Virus record (IMG/VR): IMGVR_UViG_3300035126_000842
Span: 58,314-122,313 of that record
Length of the DNA stretch: 64,000 nucleotides
Source: a virus
Direction: 5' to 3' (one strand)
Part shown: piece by piece, positions 55,696 to 64,000 of the stretch
Numbering within the stretch: the stretch's first letter is position 1
Layout: each line of letters starts with the position of its first letter
Notes under the pieces: model-generated
Databases searched by the model: none
What the model was told of the DNA's origin: nothing
The model's input: the letters and a program-made list of their open reading frames with translations, nothing else
Made by a program: the position numbers and the translations under genes

Positions 55696-56258
55696 ATCCC
55701 GTATTTTTTATTAAAATCTTCTTTAACATACATATAGTAATACAAAACTTTGTTAATATAAACTTCTGTTTTTATAAAACCTGCTTCTTTAAGCCTTTTA
55801 GAATAATCATAGTCTTCACCATATCGCATATCTCTATATCCTATTATAACAGCAATGTTTCTTTTTATAGGGGTTTTATGGTAAGGAGTTCTAACATAAT
55901 CAAAACCTCCGTGATTATCTTTCCATGTACTCCATTTATTACTAGCAGATGCTGTTTTTCCTGTGGTACCATGACATTCTATTTCAAAACCTACAGAATC
56001 AGGATTCGATTCAAGAGCTTTTAGTATAGACTCTACATAATCCTCAGAAATCATGTCATCATCATCTATAAATACAACATATTCTCCTGCTGCTTTTTCT
56101 AAAAGAGTCTGTCTTTTTCTACCAATAGAAATTTCTTTATTATCTTTTTGCTCTATAACCTCAACGTCTTCTGTTAATTGAGGGTTTAAAACAGAACGTA
56201 GTCTTTCTAAAAGATGTTCTCTTCCTACTACAGTAGGGATAAGAATTGATAGTTTCAT
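55692..56258 (-). CDS. Glycosyltransferase family 2
   Basis: LSILIPT, R..LL..A.GEYVVFIDDDD and GEDYD motifs. Confidence 0.85.
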   Translation of the reverse strand: MKLSILIPTVVGREHLLERLRSVLNPQLTEDVEVIEQKDNKEISIGRKRQTLLEKAAGEYVVFIDDDDMISEDYVESILKALESNPDSVGFEIECHGTTGKTASASNKWSTWKDNHGGFDYVRTPYHKTPIKRNIAVIIGYRDMRYGEDYDYSKRLKEAGFIKTEVYINKVLYYYMYVKEDFNKKYGI

Positions 56259-56866
56259 TTTGCTAAGATTAAATTTTCGTAGTTCTGATGAATTAACTTA
56301 AATCCAGGTAATAATGATAATATCTCATTCTTTACAGAGGGTTTATTGTTAAACTCAATGCATATTAACTTTGTATCCTGAATATACGGTAATAATTCTT
56401 TAAGAATAACAAGATCTAATCCTTCACAATCGATAGAAATAAAATCAAAGGTTTTTATTGAAGACCTTTCTACAATTTTATTTATAGTAGAAGCTTTAAC
56501 TGTAATAGGAGTAAAAGTTTGTGTTTTACCCCATCTTTCAATTTCGCTAGGTACTACAGTAGATAAAAGAGAAGTATCTCCCCTACCTAAATGCTCATTG
56601 CTATCAAGCAATTCTATTTCTTCAATATCTAAATCAACTACGGCTACATTAAATAATTCATTTAATGTGCCTTTATATAGTTTTTCTAATTTAGGAAAAG
56701 CTGTAGGACTAGGTTCAACTAAAACACCAGACCAGCCTTTTTCAAAAAGAGCCCTTGTATTAGATAACGTAATCCCATCATTAGCACCTATATCTAAAAA
56801 AGTACCTTGAGGTTGCTTTTTAAAGTAATCTAAAATTACTTGTTCTTCATTGTTTTGACTATACAT
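56255..56866 (-). CDS. FkbM-family SAM-dependent methyltransferase
   Basis: YSQNNEE, FLDIGANDG..SNT, VLVEP and ISIDCEG motifs. Confidence 0.85.
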   Translation of the reverse strand: MYSQNNEEQVILDYFKKQPQGTFLDIGANDGITLSNTRALFEKGWSGVLVEPSPTAFPKLEKLYKGTLNELFNVAVVDLDIEEIELLDSNEHLGRGDTSLLSTVVPSEIERWGKTQTFTPITVKASTINKIVERSSIKTFDFISIDCEGLDLVILKELLPYIQDTKLICIEFNNKPSVKNEILSLLPGFKLIHQNYENLILAK

Positions 56867-56870
56867 ACCT

Positions 56871-57443
56871 TTATTTTTTTATGTAATATAAATATTCAAT
56901 CGTTTCGTCTACTAAAGTGTGTTCTTCTAAAATATTACCTATTTCCTTAAGACTATAAAAATCATCTGGTTTTTTAAGGCACACAAATTTAGCTTTATTT
57001 ACCATACTTATTAATCCCTTAAGTATAAACCCCGGATTTTTGATGTTTATTACAATCAAATCAAAGGTATGAATAACACTTATACGACTTAATAAAGTAG
57101 GTGTATTATAATAAAGAAAAAGAGGAATAAATTCTTCCTTAGCTTTTTTTAACTCAAACAATTCTAGCACTTTATCAGGTAATCCTTCATTACTAGTGTC
57201 CCTAAAGTATGATTCTGAAGTAGGAGATAATGCAAAATTAAACACCTGGTGCTTTTCATTACCGTAAATCTCCTGTAATTTCTCTACCTTATAACAAGAT
57301 GGCTCTACTAGTGTAGCATACCAACCTTTCGCTGCAAGATCCCCGGTTAGTGAATTTGTTTTACCATCCCCCGCCCCTATTTCTAGGAAAAATCCAACAG
57401 TATTACCTAATATTGAGTTAAGAATTTCTTTTTCCTCAAGCAT
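56871..57443 (-). CDS. Divergent FkbM-like methyltransferase paralog
   Basis: FLEIGAGDG..LVEP is retained, but the IDxEG motif is replaced by INIKN. Confidence 0.6.
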   Translation of the reverse strand: MLEEKEILNSILGNTVGFFLEIGAGDGKTNSLTGDLAAKGWYATLVEPSCYKVEKLQEIYGNEKHQVFNFALSPTSESYFRDTSNEGLPDKVLELFELKKAKEEFIPLFLYYNTPTLLSRISVIHTFDLIVINIKNPGFILKGLISMVNKAKFVCLKKPDDFYSLKEIGNILEEHTLVDETIEYLYYIKK

Positions 57444-58089
57444 TTAATCCAAAATTCTCTGCTTCTCTTCGCTTAAACACCTGTCTATCAGCTTCAAAAA
57501 AGCTTTCTGTCTTATGATATTGAGCATCCCACGCTGCTTTTTTATAAACAGGATGATAATGATCAAATATTTTATTGCTAAAATAAAAATATCTATTTCT
57601 TTTTTTAGCTACTTCCATTGCTTCATTATCAGCCCATAGAGAAGTATAATCCGGGTGATATATATAACCATCCCTATCATAATACTTCCTATCCATTATA
57701 CTCATAGTAGCAAGATGATGTTTAGCATTCTCATCAGGGTAATGTAAAAAACAATCACCTCCTACTGCAGCAACATGATCCTTTATAATCTTATCAAATC
57801 CTTTGATCAAAAATACCTGATCATCAGATACATTAACAAGAATATCCCACGCGGGTGCTAGATTCATATCCCTATTAACAGCATCTATTTTTGTTCTAGA
57901 CAAACCGTAGTAACAAACTACCTTATCATACGAACTTAGTTTTTCCTTAATAGAAATAAGAGATTCATCATCCTCATCGAGGGTGCATAGTATAACATAA
58001 TCATCCGATTCTACCATACTCTTAATGTTCTCAATCGTCCGTATCAATTTCTCAGGACGAGATCTGCTAGTTAACTTAAATAATATCAT
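57436..58089 (-). CDS. GT2-like (GT-A fold) glycosyltransferase
   Basis: TSRSRP, AVN..M..WDILVNVSDDQ, WADNE and H motifs. Confidence 0.7.
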   Translation of the reverse strand: MILFKLTSRSRPEKLIRTIENIKSMVESDDYVILCTLDEDDESLISIKEKLSSYDKVVCYYGLSRTKIDAVNRDMNLAPAWDILVNVSDDQVFLIKGFDKIIKDHVAAVGGDCFLHYPDENAKHHLATMSIMDRKYYDRDGYIYHPDYTSLWADNEAMEVAKKRNRYFYFSNKIFDHYHPVYKKAAWDAQYHKTESFFEADRQVFKRREAENFGLNA

Positions 58090-58316
58090 TTTTCTTTAGA
58101 TAAAATAATAGAAGCTGTATCGTTTTCCGAAACTACAATCATCCTATAAGTAGAACCGCTATCTAAGGGAACTATAATTTCAGCAGGAACTTTAGCTTGT
58201 AAAACCCCGGAGACAAATTTACTAATAACATACCTATAGTCAAACTCATTGTCTACTATAGCAATCTTAGCAGTAAGTACCCCCTCAATAAACTCTACTT
58301 CTTCAAACAATAACAT
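58086..58316 (-). CDS. Hypothetical protein; first gene of the minus-strand block
   Basis: 76 aa ORF with a TAGATTTG box ending 5 nt upstream. Confidence 0.5.
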   Translation of the reverse strand: MLLFEEVEFIEGVLTAKIAIVDNEFDYRYVISKFVSGVLQAKVPAEIIVPLDSGSTYRMIVVSENDTASIILSKEK

Positions 58317-58320
58317 ATTA

Positions 58321-58328
58321 CAAATCTA
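58321..58328 (-). promoter_or_regulatory. Bacteroidota-type -7 promoter box (TAGATTTG)
   Basis: TAnnTTTG at the head of the minus-strand gene block. Confidence 0.5.
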
Positions 58329-58629
58329 TGAAATTAATTTAACAACCCAATACGGCTATAAGTTTTGGTATAAGACTTGTGTTTGATGGGGTGTATATGA
58401 AACGCTCCCCCTGTCAAATCTATCTTTCGGGTACCCCCCGTCATTCTGTGGAGTAAAAAGTATTTCTAGAATTGTTTCTTAAATTTATTTTCTGTGGGAA
58501 GAACAAAGAAGATGGGTGGTGTGTGGTGTGTGGTGTCTATGTGTTGTATCTATTGTTCTATTGTTGTTGGAGTAGGAAGAGAACACACGCAACACAACAA
58601 CCAATGTCTATCAATATCATTTGAACACT

Positions 58630-58812
58630 ATGGAAAATATAGAAAAAAAACCTATTCGCATTGACCTGGAATTGGTTGATGCGACACCCGACGGTCTGCG
58701 GGTAATACAGACCAAACTTAACCAGTGGTTAACAGCAGGAACGCTGGTTAAGTTCGAGTCCCAACCAATGGGAACTCAAATCCTCTTCACAATTGCGAGG
58801 AGGAAAGAATAA
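58630..58812 (+). CDS. Small early hypothetical protein
   Basis: ATG at 58630; the track's TTG start lies inside the repeat motif. Confidence 0.6.
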   Translation: MENIEKKPIRIDLELVDATPDGLRVIQTKLNQWLTAGTLVKFESQPMGTQILFTIARRKE

Positions 58813-58834
58813 CCTTCGGGTTATTCTTTTTTTT
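58805..58834 (+). terminator. Intrinsic terminator
   Basis: AAGAATAACC-TTCG-GGTTATTCTT plus T tract (cUUCGg tetraloop). Confidence 0.9.
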
Positions 58835-58865
58835 CCATTTAGTTTATCAATATCATTTGAATACT

Positions 58866-59087
58866 ATGGCTACTTATATAAAAGTAGACTACCGATGGGT
58901 CGGTAGTATGTCCTTTAATTGGGCATCTTTAGATACGAATGTATCTGAAATTCAGGCTGAATCAATGCCTGAAGCAGAGTACTACGAATCTAACGACCCT
59001 TGGAACAGTCAAGGTACTGAGTATTTCAGTACTCTTGACGAAGCAAACGCTTGGATTGAATCCGAGCGCTCCAATGAGGTAGTCTAA
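58866..59087 (+). CDS. Small acidic early hypothetical protein
   Basis: ATG at 58866, 5 nt after the motif. Confidence 0.6.
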   Translation: MATYIKVDYRWVGSMSFNWASLDTNVSEIQAESMPEAEYYESNDPWNSQGTEYFSTLDEANAWIESERSNEVV

Positions 59088-59166
59088 TTGAGTTAAATTC
59101 TATACAAGGTATAGAAGAAAGACTCAGGGTTCGCAATATAACCTGGTAACAGAAAATTGCAAATTG

Positions 59167-59193
59167 AAAGAGGAATAATTTCCTCTTTTTTTT
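59167..59193 (+). terminator. Intrinsic terminator
   Basis: AAAGAGGAA-TAAT-TTCCTCTTT plus T tract. Confidence 0.8.
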
Positions 59194-59209
59194 ATCAATA
59201 TCATTTACT

Positions 59210-59605
59210 ATGGTTTATAAATATCATACGAACTCTATGGAATTAACGAATATTATTCTAAAATGGGTGAGTCCTATCACCAAGGTTTCCGACAGACTCG
59301 AAAAACGCGAGATTGTCGTCGAGACATTAGGACAGTATCCTCAACTTTTAAAGTTTGAGGTTCATAACGGAAGGTGTGCTGATTACGATAGCATTCCACT
59401 TGAATCTATGATTTCTATTAGATTTGAGTTGTGTGGTCGTAAATGGAAGAACCGCGATGGTAAAGAAGTTCTCATTGAGAGCAAAGTTGCCTACTCGGTC
59501 CACACAAATGTAAAGTCTACTTACACCCACTCCGTACCTGCGCAAACCTCTGCGCCTGCACCTGCACCTGCAAAAGTCACTGACTCTGACGACTTGCCGT
59601 TCTAG
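59210..59605 (+). CDS. DUF3127-like single-stranded DNA-binding protein
   Basis: TLGQYPQLLKFEV..ISIRFELCGRKW OB-fold pattern and acidic DSDDLPF tail. Confidence 0.8.
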   Translation: MVYKYHTNSMELTNIILKWVSPITKVSDRLEKREIVVETLGQYPQLLKFEVHNGRCADYDSIPLESMISIRFELCGRKWKNRDGKEVLIESKVAYSVHTNVKSTYTHSVPAQTSAPAPAPAKVTDSDDLPF

Positions 59606-59608
59606 TGC

Positions 59609-59645
59609 AAACAACACTCCCTCAACAGGGGGTGTTGTTTTTTTT
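59609..59645 (+). terminator. Intrinsic terminator
   Basis: AAACAACACTCCCT-CAAC-AGGGGGTGTTGTTT plus T tract. Confidence 0.85.
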
Positions 59646-59695
59646 AAATGCTTTTATTGATATCATTTGAAGACTGCAACATAAACTTTGTACAT

Positions 59696-59890
59696 ATGAA
59701 AGAGAAAATGCTTCGTATCCTACTAATAATACTATTAGTAGTAGGGGTCTTCACAACAGGGACCTTATTAAACCTGTTGTTTTCTACACTGTTTGCAGGG
59801 GAGTTTATTGCTCTGCAAACTAGCCCTATTTGGGTTGTGTATTGTGTTCTAGGTTTTCTAGCAATACTATACATAATGCTAGAAGAGTAG
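59696..59890 (+). CDS. Small two-helix membrane protein
   Basis: Two hydrophobic stretches; start moved to MKEKM at 59696. Confidence 0.6.
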   Translation: MKEKMLRILLIILLVVGVFTTGTLLNLLFSTLFAGEFIALQTSPIWVVYCVLGFLAILYIMLEE

Positions 59891-59895
59891 AAAAG

Positions 59896-59923
59896 AAACA
59901 GGGTGTAAAAACCCTGTTTTTTT
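59896..59923 (+). terminator. Intrinsic terminator
   Basis: AAACAGGGT-GTAAAA-ACCCTGTTT plus T tract. Confidence 0.85.
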
Positions 59924-59962
59924 ATTTTTATATCATTTGAATATTAGTTAACTAAAATCATT

Positions 59963-60202
59963 ATGAAAAAACTAGTATTATTATTGCTCGCTGTATTGGT
60001 TGTAGGTTGTGGTACTACTACACCAAGATTACATTATCCACAAGAAACTATGTGGAAAATGGCAAGACCATTGTACCAAAACAAGAATCATAGGTATGGT
60101 TTCTTTATATACCCTGATTCTAACTTCGTTACATACGTACCTAGAAAGGGATGTATGATGAACTATGAGTTGTACGACAATGATTATTTGTATATTCCAT
60201 AG
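59963..60202 (+). CDS. Small predicted lipoprotein
   Basis: MKKLVLLLLAVLVVG-C signal peptide with lipobox. Confidence 0.7.
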   Translation: MKKLVLLLLAVLVVGCGTTTPRLHYPQETMWKMARPLYQNKNHRYGFFIYPDSNFVTYVPRKGCMMNYELYDNDYLYIP

Positions 60203-60209
60203 TAAAAAG

Positions 60210-60237
60210 ACCTTCGCTTAAACGCGAGGGTTTTTTT
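60210..60237 (+). terminator. Intrinsic terminator
   Basis: ACCTTCGC-TTAAAC-GCGAGGGT plus T tract. Confidence 0.8.
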
Positions 60238-60292
60238 CTTACTTATTATATATCATTTGAAATCTGATAAATTCACTCTTAAACAAAATGTT

Positions 60293-60607
60293 ATGTTAAG
60301 TTACGAACAGTTAAAGGCAGACCGTAATTATGAAGCTGTATGGGGTTCATTTAAAAGAGAAAATGGCGTCGTTTATGATGTATATGATTATAAACATCAT
60401 GCTACAGAAGATGTAGTTAGTGTGGTAACATTCGAAGTAAACGAAGTAGGAAAAGATGAATTGGATGCACTTTACCGCATTCAACGCATCATTGAGGACA
60501 AGATTTACGAAGCAAGAACTCGTCTTCAAGAAATTAAGGAAGCTAACATTAAGGATGATGAAGAATGCTCAAATGTACCAGCGTACTTCGACGGTCCTTT
60601 CGGGTAA
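60293..60607 (+). CDS. Early hypothetical protein
   Basis: Probable ATG at 60293; the track's TTG start lies inside the repeat motif. Confidence 0.55.
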   Translation: MLSYEQLKADRNYEAVWGSFKRENGVVYDVYDYKHHATEDVVSVVTFEVNEVGKDELDALYRIQRIIEDKIYEARTRLQEIKEANIKDDEECSNVPAYFDGPFG

Positions 60608-60612
60608 AAAGT

Positions 60613-60643
60613 AACAGCGGGTGTAATAACTCGCTGTTTTTTT
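60613..60643 (+). terminator. Intrinsic terminator
   Basis: AACAGCGGGT-GTAATA-ACTCGCTGTT plus T tract. Confidence 0.85.
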
Positions 60644-60718
60644 CCTACTATAGTAACTATATTAATTTAAATATCATTTGAAATCTACAATTATGTTTCA
60701 CCCTTAATCACACAAAAA

Positions 60719-61015
60719 ATGTTAAGAACAGTTAATGAAAATGGAGCTACTGTAGCAGAAGCATTCGGCTTCACGCAAAAAGAAGATGTCTCAATCAGAC
60801 TCTGCGTCCTTAGGAATGTTATGAATCCTGAGTACTCAAAGTACACTGATGTAATGAGTACTTCTCTTAATGAGTTAACAAACGAATTACCCCCTTCGTT
60901 TGAACTAATTGCTACCGTGAGTTTTCAAGCAGGTTTATATTACGAAAAAATGCGCTTGAAACAAGTAGAAGAACTCATAATTGAGCGATTCGTACTCGAA
61001 AATTATCAGGGGTGA
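60719..61015 (+). CDS. Early hypothetical protein
   Basis: 98 aa ORF between a motif copy and a terminator. Confidence 0.6.
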   Translation: MLRTVNENGATVAEAFGFTQKEDVSIRLCVLRNVMNPEYSKYTDVMSTSLNELTNELPPSFELIATVSFQAGLYYEKMRLKQVEELIIERFVLENYQG

Positions 61016-61022
61016 TAATAGG

Positions 61023-61055
61023 AAGCGCTCTCTCTTCGGAGGGAGTGCTTTTTTT
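61023..61055 (+). terminator. Intrinsic terminator
   Basis: AAGCGCTCTCTC-TTCG-GAGGGAGTGCTT plus T tract. Confidence 0.85.
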
Positions 61056-61439
61056 ATCTATTAATTTAAATATCAATTGAATACTAGATATTGTGGTAAT
61101 TGTTGTGTACATTGCATCCTTTCTAGAGGGTTGCATTGATTAGTCCTACTGTTATAATAAGAACAGCATGAAAACATCGCCAAAGGTGTGGGGCATAACA
61201 GTTACTACAGTATTTTTTTTAACTGTATAAGGGAGTATTGTTTTCCTATATATATAGTAAAAAGAGAACAAAGCGGGGGAAATTTTCGCTAGTGTACATA
61301 TGGTGTATATATATCGTATCGTGTGCGTAGCGAAAACTTGCGTATTACTCCTATATATATAGTGTAGTACTATTCGTACTTAATATCTAATAATTTAAAT
61401 ATCACCCGAATCCCGATTATCTTTTCACAATTTAACTAA

Positions 61440-62039
61440 ATGTTTATGGAAATCAAAGTTCAATTCCCAGCGGACTGTTATGTCCAACCACGAGTTGTTC
61501 GCGACGAAGACGGCAACCCTATCGTTAACCCTGAAACAGGCGAGCAGGTTAAAAAGCGCGGTTATTATCGCGGTATCGTCATTGAAGGTAAGGAAGCGTT
61601 TCGCGAACATTATGTTGACCGTAACGGAAATCCTGTTCGTCAACCTAAAGAGAGTAAAGACCTTATCTACTACTCTCTAAACGCACCCGAACTTGTAGGT
61701 CGCGATGCGAGCGGTAAACCTGTCTACGCTATTATGACATTGCAAGCGTGGAGTAATACCGATAATAACGGTGTTACTAAGCGCGGCATCAAAGTGGTAG
61801 ACGGTCGTAACCAAAACGAACTTGACCTCGCAGAACTTAAAAAGGTTCGCGAAATGTTAGGTGACGAGGAAGCGGTAACGGGCGAATACAATCAACGCGT
61901 AGCGCAAGTAGCGAGAAATGCGTTTGACAATGCCTTGCGCAACGTCCGGAATCGCTCTACCGCTACTACGGAAGCGCCTGCGCAAACGCTTGAGAATGAG
62001 CGAGTTATCGAACCGGACCCTAACGAACCCTCCTTCTAA
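61440..62039 (+). CDS. GC-rich hypothetical protein, possibly ssDNA-binding
   Basis: 199 aa, beta-rich, with an acidic tail ending EPDPNEPSF; composition is atypical for this genome. Confidence 0.55.
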   Translation: MFMEIKVQFPADCYVQPRVVRDEDGNPIVNPETGEQVKKRGYYRGIVIEGKEAFREHYVDRNGNPVRQPKESKDLIYYSLNAPELVGRDASGKPVYAIMTLQAWSNTDNNGVTKRGIKVVDGRNQNELDLAELKKVREMLGDEEAVTGEYNQRVAQVARNAFDNALRNVRNRSTATTEAPAQTLENERVIEPDPNEPSF

Positions 62040-62302
62040 CACACGACTGTTAGTCGCAATCTGAACTTAAGTACTTAATCTTGCGTGGCTTTATGCTGCG
62101 CAAGGTTAGGTGCTTATTTTCTGCTGTGCGTGTCGTACATTCTTTTGGGGTTTATTCTATACATGATTCCATACATATCGTGTAGCATAAATAAATTTTG
62201 CAATAACTACCTATATATTATCTATCTTCTATATAATAAAGGTTCCTTATACATATATGTTACTTTTGTAGGGAAAAATATCACCCGGTTTTATTTTTTA
62301 TT

Positions 62303-62761
62303 ATGAATACCTATTTTGCAATAATTAGAGTACCACATGACTCATCAGCACAAATATATTTCAATGCTGTTGATGATAGAAAAACTATACAAGATACTAT
62401 TGATTGGAATGCTACAATAGCGGAATATCGTACTATATGGGAAGATAATAATCCCGGTATACCGTTTGTAGAACCTGAACAAATAGAATACGACTATCAT
62501 ACATATCGTATAGGTGATTTAGTATATGATACTTTTTGGGACGATGTGAACCGAATATATTATCTTAACACCGAATTAGAACTTGTTAAACTTTGGGTTG
62601 ATATAACAAGTGCATATAGTAAACCCCACCAATGGAGCAGAATAATACAACTTATAGAAAATTATATTATCTCTGAGTATTCTGAATCTCTTAACTTTAC
62701 AGAGGTAACTCCAGAAATTATACAAGTTATTATTACCATATTAGAACAAGTTACACCTTAA
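62303..62761 (+). CDS. Hypothetical protein
   Basis: 152 aa ORF downstream of motif copy 10. Confidence 0.6.
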   Translation: MNTYFAIIRVPHDSSAQIYFNAVDDRKTIQDTIDWNATIAEYRTIWEDNNPGIPFVEPEQIEYDYHTYRIGDLVYDTFWDDVNRIYYLNTELELVKLWVDITSAYSKPHQWSRIIQLIENYIISEYSESLNFTEVTPEIIQVIITILEQVTP

Positions 62762-62788
62762 ATAACATTAACTACTTAACTTTGTTTT

Positions 62789-63022
62789 ATGAGAATTACT
62801 AAGTCAGATTTACTTTTGTTCTTTTGCAGTATTGTTGTAGCCTTTATGACATATTCTGTCTACAATACAGAAATGGAATACAGAGAACGCAACAAAAAAA
62901 CTTTTTATCATTTTACTATTATAGATTCGTCTATGGTATTATATGATGAAGAGGATAACTACATCGGGTCTACCCAGCTATCAGGTAACATTGATAGTTT
63001 ACTAGTAGATTATTACGAATAG
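62789..63022 (+). CDS. Small membrane-anchored protein
   Basis: N-terminal hydrophobic helix. Confidence 0.55.
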   Translation: MRITKSDLLLFFCSIVVAFMTYSVYNTEMEYRERNKKTFYHFTIIDSSMVLYDEEDNYIGSTQLSGNIDSLLVDYYE

Positions 63023-63036
63023 TAGTTTTTATTACC

Positions 63037-63197
63037 TTTGCACTAATTCACTCTAGGGTGAGCAGTTGTAATATTCATCTCAGCTCCTATAAATAATAAG
63101 TTATTAGAGATGATTACTGTGCACAAGTAGATGACCAAAATCAGTTATTCCTTGAAGAATAACATGAAGGAGTGGCGCTATTACAACTGAGTGCAAA
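63037..63197 (+). ncRNA. Candidate structured non-coding RNA
   Basis: Nested complementary segments TTTGCACT/AGTGCAAA, CAGTTGTAATA/TATTACAACTG, TCATCTC/GAGATGA and GTTATTC/GAATAAC; TACCTTTG promoter box at 63033-63040; no ORF. Confidence 0.45.
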
Positions 63198-63315
63198 AAA
63201 ATGATGTTCTATTTCTAAAAGGATGTCGCTAATAAAAAACTTAATAACTTCCCAAGTTGTTGAGTTTTACTTCTCAAGATTTGGTTTTCTAATAAATTCT
63301 TAGTATATATGCAGT

Positions 63316-63855
63316 ATGAAAACTGTAATTACAAAGGAAATATTAGAAAACCTACTTGAGCAAGGTTTTAGTAGTAATCAAATTGGTAAACAATTAGGCT
63401 ATAGTGGCGTTGGTATAAGATATTACATGAAAAAATGGTTATTATCGTCTATTCATGCCTCAATACAAGATAAAACTTGTTATATAACTGATACACATAA
63501 ACAATGTCCTAAATGTTCTGAAATTAAAGAACTAAATAATTTTGATAAAAGACCTAATGGTAATGTTCAATCTTATTGTAGAAAATGTTGTAATGATAAT
63601 AGGTATTCTATTATTAAACAGCATAAACTCACAATATTAAATGAATTAGGTAATTGTTGTTCTAATTGTGGATACAATAAAAACACATCAGCATTAGAAT
63701 TTCATCATTTAGAACCTGAACATAAAGACTTTCATTTTGGTAGTACAAAAACTACTAATATTGATAAAATAAGAAAAGAATTGGAGAAATGTATTCTTGT
63801 ATGTGCTAATTGCCACAGAGAAATACACTATCCTCAAAATAATAAAACTATATAA
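63316..63855 (+). CDS. HNH endonuclease with N-terminal HTH and Zn ribbons
   Basis: CSNCGY..ALEFHH..K.F..ELEKCILVCANCHREIH. Confidence 0.85.
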   Translation: MKTVITKEILENLLEQGFSSNQIGKQLGYSGVGIRYYMKKWLLSSIHASIQDKTCYITDTHKQCPKCSEIKELNNFDKRPNGNVQSYCRKCCNDNRYSIIKQHKLTILNELGNCCSNCGYNKNTSALEFHHLEPEHKDFHFGSTKTTNIDKIRKELEKCILVCANCHREIHYPQNNKTI

Positions 63856-64000
63856 ATCCTCTATGCTGAGGACACCAGTTTCTTTGATATAAACGGACTA
63901 AACCCAATTATAATTGAAAGAATGTAAGAATAGCTTTCTTACCCTTTATAATATTATCAAAGTTTTAGGTGTAAAACACAATAGAGTAAACTATTCAAAT

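Follow-up and report, generated by a model that had tools for sequence, protein, structure and literature searches.

A short motif recurs along a row of small genes in a phage genome from IMG/VR, and the question raised by this locus is what the motif does there and what reads it. The stretch analysed, here called the window, comprises the final 64 kb of the 122,313-bp record IMGVR_UViG_3300035126_000842, which has 31.7% GC, a 145-bp terminal overlap and an IMG/VR rating as complete; near-identical DNA of the phage is present in many lake-water metagenomes. A leftward block with the virion and packaging genes occupies 42.1–116.4 kb of the genome, and a rightward block of about 47 kb runs from window 58.6 kb across the record end to genome 42 kb. 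The motif copies form an array at the head of the rightward block. The answer proposed here, to which we give an even chance, is that the array would be a row of early promoter–terminator cassettes resembling the promoter/stem-loop repeats (PeSLs) of T4-type phages, with a phage-specific promoter that is read by an injected polymerase and at which cassettes are exchanged.

The repeated motif

The 12-mer ATATCAYYYGAA is found with at most one mismatch at nine places on the + strand, at the starts given for copies 1–9 in Table 1; at 62278 begins a tenth copy, ATATCACCCGG. The weight matrix of the motif covers 19 nt and contains 21.9 bits, with the consensus ATATCAYYYGAAnnCT followed by a purine. 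Nine copies have scores of 18.4–24.2, the next best site in the genome 15.3 and copy 10 only 10.3, and the array therefore consists of nine strong copies and one weak, copy 10 being marginal like a reverse match with a score of 13.4. ATATCA and the G are invariant in the copies, and TTTG is present in six of them and replaced by CCCG, TACG or ATTG in the other four, the CCCG core being found in copies 9 and 10, the first of which heads gene 9. The CT and the next purine are conserved with or without an adjoining ATG. In all, about 17 nt are kept, and genes, terminators and most flanks are unrelated between units. Two subfamilies can be seen in the upstream flanks, with TATCAATATCA in units 1–3 and TTAATTTAA in units 7–9, and copies 9 and 10 share about 130 nt of upstream homology (score 62 vs 36.8 ± 6.4).

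In the entire genome the pattern ATATCAYYYG occurs nine times, eight times in the forward direction, all within a stretch of 3.7 kb, and once in reverse (window 57661). A set of 1000 permuted patterns of the same composition gave a mean of 3.25 matches, and the largest same-strand cluster within 4 kb was on average 1.15, compared with the eight observed; large clusters in this control came solely from shifted versions of the motif. Among the intergenic 8-mers of the genome, those most enriched also derive from the motif. A first-pass annotation of the window had described ten copies 236–879 nt apart, with flank subfamilies and a core drifting from TTTG to CCCG along the array. The spacings, the subfamilies and the drift are all as described, the number of copies is borne out as nine strong and one weak, and in the genome-wide scan the strong copies are confined to intergenic positions on one strand at the start of the rightward block.

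Organization of the units and the proposed scheme

Seven predicted + strand terminators, each a GC-rich hairpin followed by a T-tract, end 6–32 nt before copies 2–8, which is the position shortly after a terminator that had been noted earlier for seven copies. Within 57500–64000 there are 17 terminator-like sites where 3.3 are expected from shuffled sequences, five times more. Nearly every copy precedes one small gene, as had also been stated, the genes encoding 60–199 aa, and copy 8 heads a structured RNA instead. In units 1–3 there are 4 nt between the 12-nt core and the ATG, close to the about 5 nt first given, and in the others 13–36 nt. A motif–gene–terminator grammar of the units is thus supported by the sequence. 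In the rest of the rightward block the motif is absent after terminators, and the next start codon comes directly.

The motif is very probably a phage-specific promoter. This interpretation of the sequence fits best because the motif is found in a post-terminator position, in a fixed orientation and once per gene, and has a conserved CT and purine. In the proposed scheme the stretch would be a row of self-contained early transcription units. An intrinsic terminator would stop the previous transcript, and 6–32 nt further on the promoter ATATCAYYYGAAnnCT would start the next one, presumably at the purine directly after CT, which would make the transcripts of units 1–3 leaderless or nearly so. 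Each promoter would serve a single small gene, except in unit 8, where it would drive a small structured RNA. The reader would most likely be the injected two-barrel RNA polymerase of the phage, a 3741-aa protein with the sequence DFDVD, acting immediately after DNA entry. Since every unit lies between copies of this short signal, the signal could also be a homology patch for the replacement, loss and gain of units between strains.

The candidate polymerase

The portal, the major head protein and the terminase match those of known phage families. The portal shares 22–25% identity with Crassvirales portals and 32% with the portal of Leptolyngbya phage Lbo-JY46, indicating that the phage is only distantly crAss-like. 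The 3741-aa protein is encoded in the virion block and has DFDVD (in a GDFDVD region) at residue 2224. About 170 residues around this position align with the G-S-DFDID region of a 4422-aa giant protein of crAss phage cr8_1, with 30% identity over this part and a pairwise E-value of 7e-11. All 53 of 53 tblastn matches to the 3741-aa protein are in crAss-like phages, and no direct match was found in PDB sequences or PHROGs. From these similarities we take it to be a homologue of the injected crAss RNA polymerase, and we infer that it is packaged and injected.

The injected RNA polymerase of phage phi14:2, gp66, is responsible for transcription of the early genes on the rightward side, where two non-coding regions also rank with the most abundant early RNAs (Drobysheva et al., bioRxiv 10.1101/2020.03.07.982082). 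By analogy, the chances that the motif of the array is read by the injected polymerase appear evenly balanced. More tentatively, and with somewhat less than an even chance, ATATCAYYYGAAnnCT might be the first promoter to be defined for an injected two-barrel RNA polymerase of the crAss type, with a purine start after CT, leaderless first mRNAs and array-encoded cofactors resembling proteins that bind single-stranded DNA (SSBs), namely gene 3 and perhaps gene 9, that aid the use of the template. Such cofactors may have a parallel in the virion RNA polymerase of coliphage N4 with its SSB, and in QDE-1 with RPA. In the literature searched the start signal of an injected crAss-type polymerase was not described, and a nine-fold, sharply defined signal at the place where the enzyme should act first is a concrete template for in-vitro transcription and for the mapping of 5' ends.

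Contigs from three lake metatranscriptomes cover the capsid gene, gene 9 (61475–62025) and gene 7 (60702–60852, one exact contig). RNA cover is missing over most of the 20 kb compared, whereas one DNA run covers all 20 kb, which argues for real transcripts. Gene 9, located behind a CCCG-type copy, is well expressed. None of the RNA pieces, of which there are five only, crosses a motif.

Exchange of cassettes between strains

A variant strain, 97–98% identical, is found in three metagenome contigs and an independent Logan contig, all with one structure. Cassettes 1–2 (window 58638–59203) are replaced in this strain by one unrelated gene. At the left joint homology extends through motif 1 and eight coding bases to 58637, 12 nt past motif 1, and at the right joint it resumes at motif 3. 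The replacement is 393 nt without a DNA match to the window, and contains a 97-aa gene, dissimilar to both gene 1 and gene 2, together with a terminator of its own and a perfect motif copy. The first promoter of the variant strain is identical to window copy 2 over 27 nt. A ghost copy in the window (Table 1) ends just past its ATGG, 7 nt before copy 3, and is fused to this next promoter, and the equivalent place in the variant strain is occupied by a perfect motif copy. We read the ghost copy as the scar of a lost cassette.

The first-pass annotation had suggested that the motif may also serve as a recombination joint, and this idea is supported by the replacement, with both joints at the motif, and by the ghost copy. 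The sequences fit recombination at the repeated promoter, as in the PeSLs, a mechanism that we infer. Two other differences between the strains are away from the motif: the loss of a leftward gene at 56254–56900 and different content after 63075.

Comparison with known systems and with relatives

The closest known arrangement is that of the PeSL cassettes of the T4-type phages RB49 and phi1 (Arbiol et al. 2010, PMC2839356; Comeau et al. 2014, PMC4122927). In both systems a repeated early promoter and a stem-loop terminator stand in a variable region, ahead of small genes whose function is unknown, and close relatives differ by insertions, deletions and replacements that have the repeats at their borders, here in one variant lineage. 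However, PeSL promoters follow the σ70 consensus with -35, -10 and an AT-rich upstream part and are read by the host RNA polymerase, and the motif of the array lacks these elements. The terminators of the array also differ in being unrelated to each other in sequence and always upstream of the motif, and the present phage carries a candidate injected polymerase. Gene exchange by promoter–terminator cassettes, as in T4-type phages, would here be found with a promoter that is not of the host type and in a distant phage group.

With phi14:2 the phage shares a giant DFDxD protein of the virion block, rightward early genes adjoining the strand switch, and a non-coding RNA among small genes, which is abundant early in phi14:2 and is here the predicted RNA of unit 8. 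The two differ in that no motif common to the early 5' ends was found in phi14:2 and its entire replicative module is early, and the portals are about 22–25% identical. In coliphage N4 the virion RNA polymerase is an injected, T7-like single-subunit enzyme, early transcription needs an SSB, and the early promoters P1–P3 are extruded hairpins with inverted repeats and a loop centred at -11 (PMC4496689). The likeness to N4 is that phage-specific signals head the early region for a polymerase delivered with the DNA, here a candidate one, and that the array encodes an SSB-like protein. The differences are the enzyme type, here two-barrel, the nine to ten copies against three in N4, and the absence of a hairpin. 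When folded as single strands of DNA, all ten copies reach 0 to -2 kcal/mol, which is no improvement on shuffled sequences, and they share no stem; the motif is therefore not an N4-type promoter.

The array had no match by Megablast among GenBank phages. No ATATCAYYYG array was found in the first 14 kb of phi14:2 or in the equivalent region of Lbo-JY46, the closest cultured relative by portal, where there is also no obvious repeated 10-mer and few + strand terminators. Fragments of five relatives from a large related group (61–89 kb, TerL about 55% identical) have no motif cluster, and when IMG/VR was scanned for the motif with CTATGG or CT added, there were single chance-like matches, with no array among the matches listed.

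In one of these five relatives, G001, the same genomic place (L225 12200–17400) has small open reading frames (ORFs) and terminators over about 5 kb with different repeats, namely four copies of GCCTTCGGCAG and eight of AACTTAAAA; AAACTGTAAT is found after two terminators.

Alternative readings of the motif

A Bacteroidota host is suggested by the sequence, because Shine-Dalgarno-like sequences are found for only 5–8 of 128 genes, A is enriched at -3, a DUF3127 protein is encoded and the phage has crAss kinship. The primary-sigma promoter of Bacteroidota has the -7 box TAnnTTTG and a TTTG at -33, about 19–21 nt upstream. In our estimate it is rather unlikely that the host RNA polymerase reads the motif, recognition being by the primary sigma factor through an extended -10/-7 element of atypical form, or by an alternative sigma factor, with the injected polymerase acting elsewhere or non-specifically. 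According to a review the earliest genes of most phages are transcribed by the host enzyme, and the PeSLs are of the host type; TTTG could also be the Bacteroidota -7 box in six copies. The motif has the spacing TA-N3-TTTG, however, one base off the Bacteroidota consensus TAnnTTTG, and copies with a CCCG, TACG or ATTG core are without the TTTG or the T at -7, although ATATCA and the G are invariant throughout. No conserved -35 or -33 element was found upstream of the copies, where the flanks are terminators at variable distance, and a generic σ70 scan picked none of the copies. The core is thus unlike the host box, as first claimed. That the host box would instead mark minus-strand genes could not be upheld: TAnnTTTG has seven sense matches in intergenic DNA against 7.5 expected and precedes just two minus-strand genes, and without enrichment the claimed contrast fails.

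Several observations weigh against an array of phage promoters read by the injected polymerase and exchanged at the motif, some of them in favour of the host enzyme. TATCAT, present in seven of the ten copies, matches the σ70 -10 hexamer TATAAT in five of six positions. The motif covers the first 3.7 kb of the rightward block only, leaving about 43 kb of rightward genes without it. In phi14:2 the whole rightward replicative module is classed as early and no motif common to the early transcripts was found, so that a crAss RNA polymerase may not need one, and gp66 transcribes native double-stranded phi14:2 DNA weakly, and single-stranded or denatured DNA efficiently, in vitro (bioRxiv 10.1101/2020.03.07.982082). 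The metatranscriptome runs are assembled contigs only and give no starts, ends or strand. The motif is in none of the relatives examined, which makes the signal lineage-specific and leaves it without a phylogenetic footprint. The evidence of exchange is one replacement in one lineage and one scar, and breakpoints between genes would also be expected from selection for intact genes.

It is improbable that the motif is no promoter and is instead an operator for an early regulator, a signal for RNase or antitermination within a long read-through transcript, or a place where a cassette-moving recombinase or endonuclease acts. The position at cassette borders, the one swap with its joints there, and an HNH endonuclease gene 1 kb downstream that is absent in the variant strain would agree with such a site, but the strong terminators directly upstream of seven copies should leave little read-through RNA carrying the motif, and no inverted repeat or folding site of the attC or recombinase type is found at it. 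Its orientation, its placement once per gene, the 4 nt to the ATG in three units and the CT-purine fit initiation. That the copies are functionless remnants from serial duplication of one ancestral cassette head is hardly credible. The two flank subfamilies do suggest local duplication, but just about 17 nt are kept among otherwise unrelated units, the nine copies are within 6 bits of one another, and the unrelated replacement cassette of the variant strain has perfect copies.

Genes and RNA of the array

The features of the array are listed in Table 1. Eight of the ten genes have no family match, and the GC content of the cassette genes ranges from 31% to 48%, which points to mixed gene origins. 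The inferred product of gene 3 matches PF11325 (1.1e-11) and phrog_4932 (3.6e-14). Gene 9 has 48% GC against 31.7% in the genome and belongs to a conserved family with members 46–97% identical, all with an acidic tail and a terminal F like the tips of SSBs. Its predicted structure, with an N-terminal β domain, has a predicted local distance difference test score (pLDDT) of 72. Foldseek with this model gave nothing at E ≤ 0.001, the weak top rows including OB-fold SSBs (E 0.07–0.2), and in a wide structural search the matches were dominated by the C-terminal helical hairpin. No matches were obtained in protein scans of IMG/VR with gene 9 and with the 217-aa neighbour, or with a gene-9 alignment in IMG/VR and prokaryote genomes.

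The 137 nt after motif copy 8 are predicted to form a multibranch fold with a 23-bp closing stem running into a U-tract, and have no match in Rfam. An internal module (61129–61195) has a second occurrence, 81% identical, elsewhere in the variant strain, and comparison of these paralogous modules reveals a compensatory change of U-A to C-G in one hairpin. A 20-aa peptide gene in unit 8 was considered and dropped, as the ATG is lost in the paralogous module and the hairpin change is compensatory.

Table 1. Motif copies, genes and other features in and next to the array, in window coordinates. MFE, minimum free energy.
Feature	Position	Strand	Remarks
Weak reverse motif copy ATATCACCCGGA, inside a leftward gene	57650..57661	-	Score 13.4; retained in the variant strain
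Divergent intergenic region, leftward late block / rightward block	58317..58613	.	From ORF maps and sequence
Motif copy 1, ATATCATTTGAAcaCT	58614..58629	+	Score 24.1; ATG 4 nt after the 12-nt core
Gene 1, 60 aa, no family match	58630..58812	+	Terminator 58799–58834
Motif copy 2	58850..58865	+	Score 24.2; 15 nt 3' of the terminator stem
Gene 2, 73 aa, no family match	58866..59087	+	Terminator 59166–59189
Ghost copy, flank of copy-2 type and core, without GAAn	59194..59213	+	From sequence
Motif copy 3, core ATATCATACGAA	59221..59236	+	Score 21.6
Gene 3, 122 aa, DUF3127 / SSB-like PHROG, C-terminus DSDDLPF	59237..59605	+	Terminator 59609–59640
Motif copy 4	59660..59675	+	Score 20.9
Gene 4, 64 aa, hydrophobic (membrane-like)	59696..59890	+	Terminator 59892–59923
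Motif copy 5	59930..59945	+	Score 18.4; 6 nt 3' of the terminator stem
Gene 5, 79 aa, lipoprotein-like signal (LVVGC)	59963..60202	+	Terminator 60204–60237
Motif copy 6	60250..60265	+	Score 21.5
Gene 6, 104 aa, no family match	60293..60607	+	Terminator 60613–60638
Motif copy 7, upstream flank TTAATTTAA	60671..60686	+	Score 23.0
Gene 7, 98 aa	60719..61015	+	Terminator 61020–61053
Motif copy 8, core ATATCAATTGAA	61070..61085	+	Score 22.0
Unit 8, putative non-coding RNA of about 135 nt, no ORF	61086..61222	+	Fold MFE -45.9 kcal/mol, z -3.6
Motif copy 9, CCCG core	61399..61414	+	Score 20.9; about 170 nt upstream AT-rich
Gene 9, 199 aa	61440..62039	+	Terminator 62070–62114
Weak motif copy 10, ATATCACCCGGT	62278..62289	+	Score 10.3; 13 nt before gene 10 (62303–62761)

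Neighbouring regions

The strand-switch region has GT-rich runs (GGTGGTGTGTGGTGTGTGGTG, GTTGTTGTTGG) followed by CA-rich runs at window 58500–58605, just 5' of copy 1, and this GT/CA-rich part differs between strains. On the leftward side, a 203-aa gene at 56254–56900 is absent from the variant strain and from a Logan contig, which have 34 nt instead.

ARAGORN detected zero tRNA genes in the window, and Rfam gave nothing credible within 57500–64000. Outside the window, at genome 2194–2681, there are two tRNA-like sequences with T-arm and acceptor ends and long internal inserts.

Downstream of the array the HNH endonuclease gene (phrog_2255, 1e-31) is located at 63316–63855, where the variant strain has other sequence, and it has the appearance of a mobile insertion. 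At 63031–63205 there is a structured non-coding element (MFE -45.7, z -3.9) without a match in Rfam. It starts at a canonical TACCTTTG box, and its frame consists of CTTTGCAC, a hairpin, AGTTGTAAT, a variable insert and ATTACAACTGAGTGCA. The frame has four further occurrences in the variant strain (L020 5223–6884), with different inserts and with small ORFs between them, and the divergence of the strains begins directly after AGTTGTAAT (63075). High-depth RNA contigs of other organisms share just the two ends of the element, 63035–63072 and the part up to 63195.

A second repeated signal is found outside the window at genome 8452–9970, where it precedes several small rightward genes. It consists of TAACAATAAATAT followed by AACCTTTCA and then CGTATAAAGTAA, with the ATG 1 nt later.

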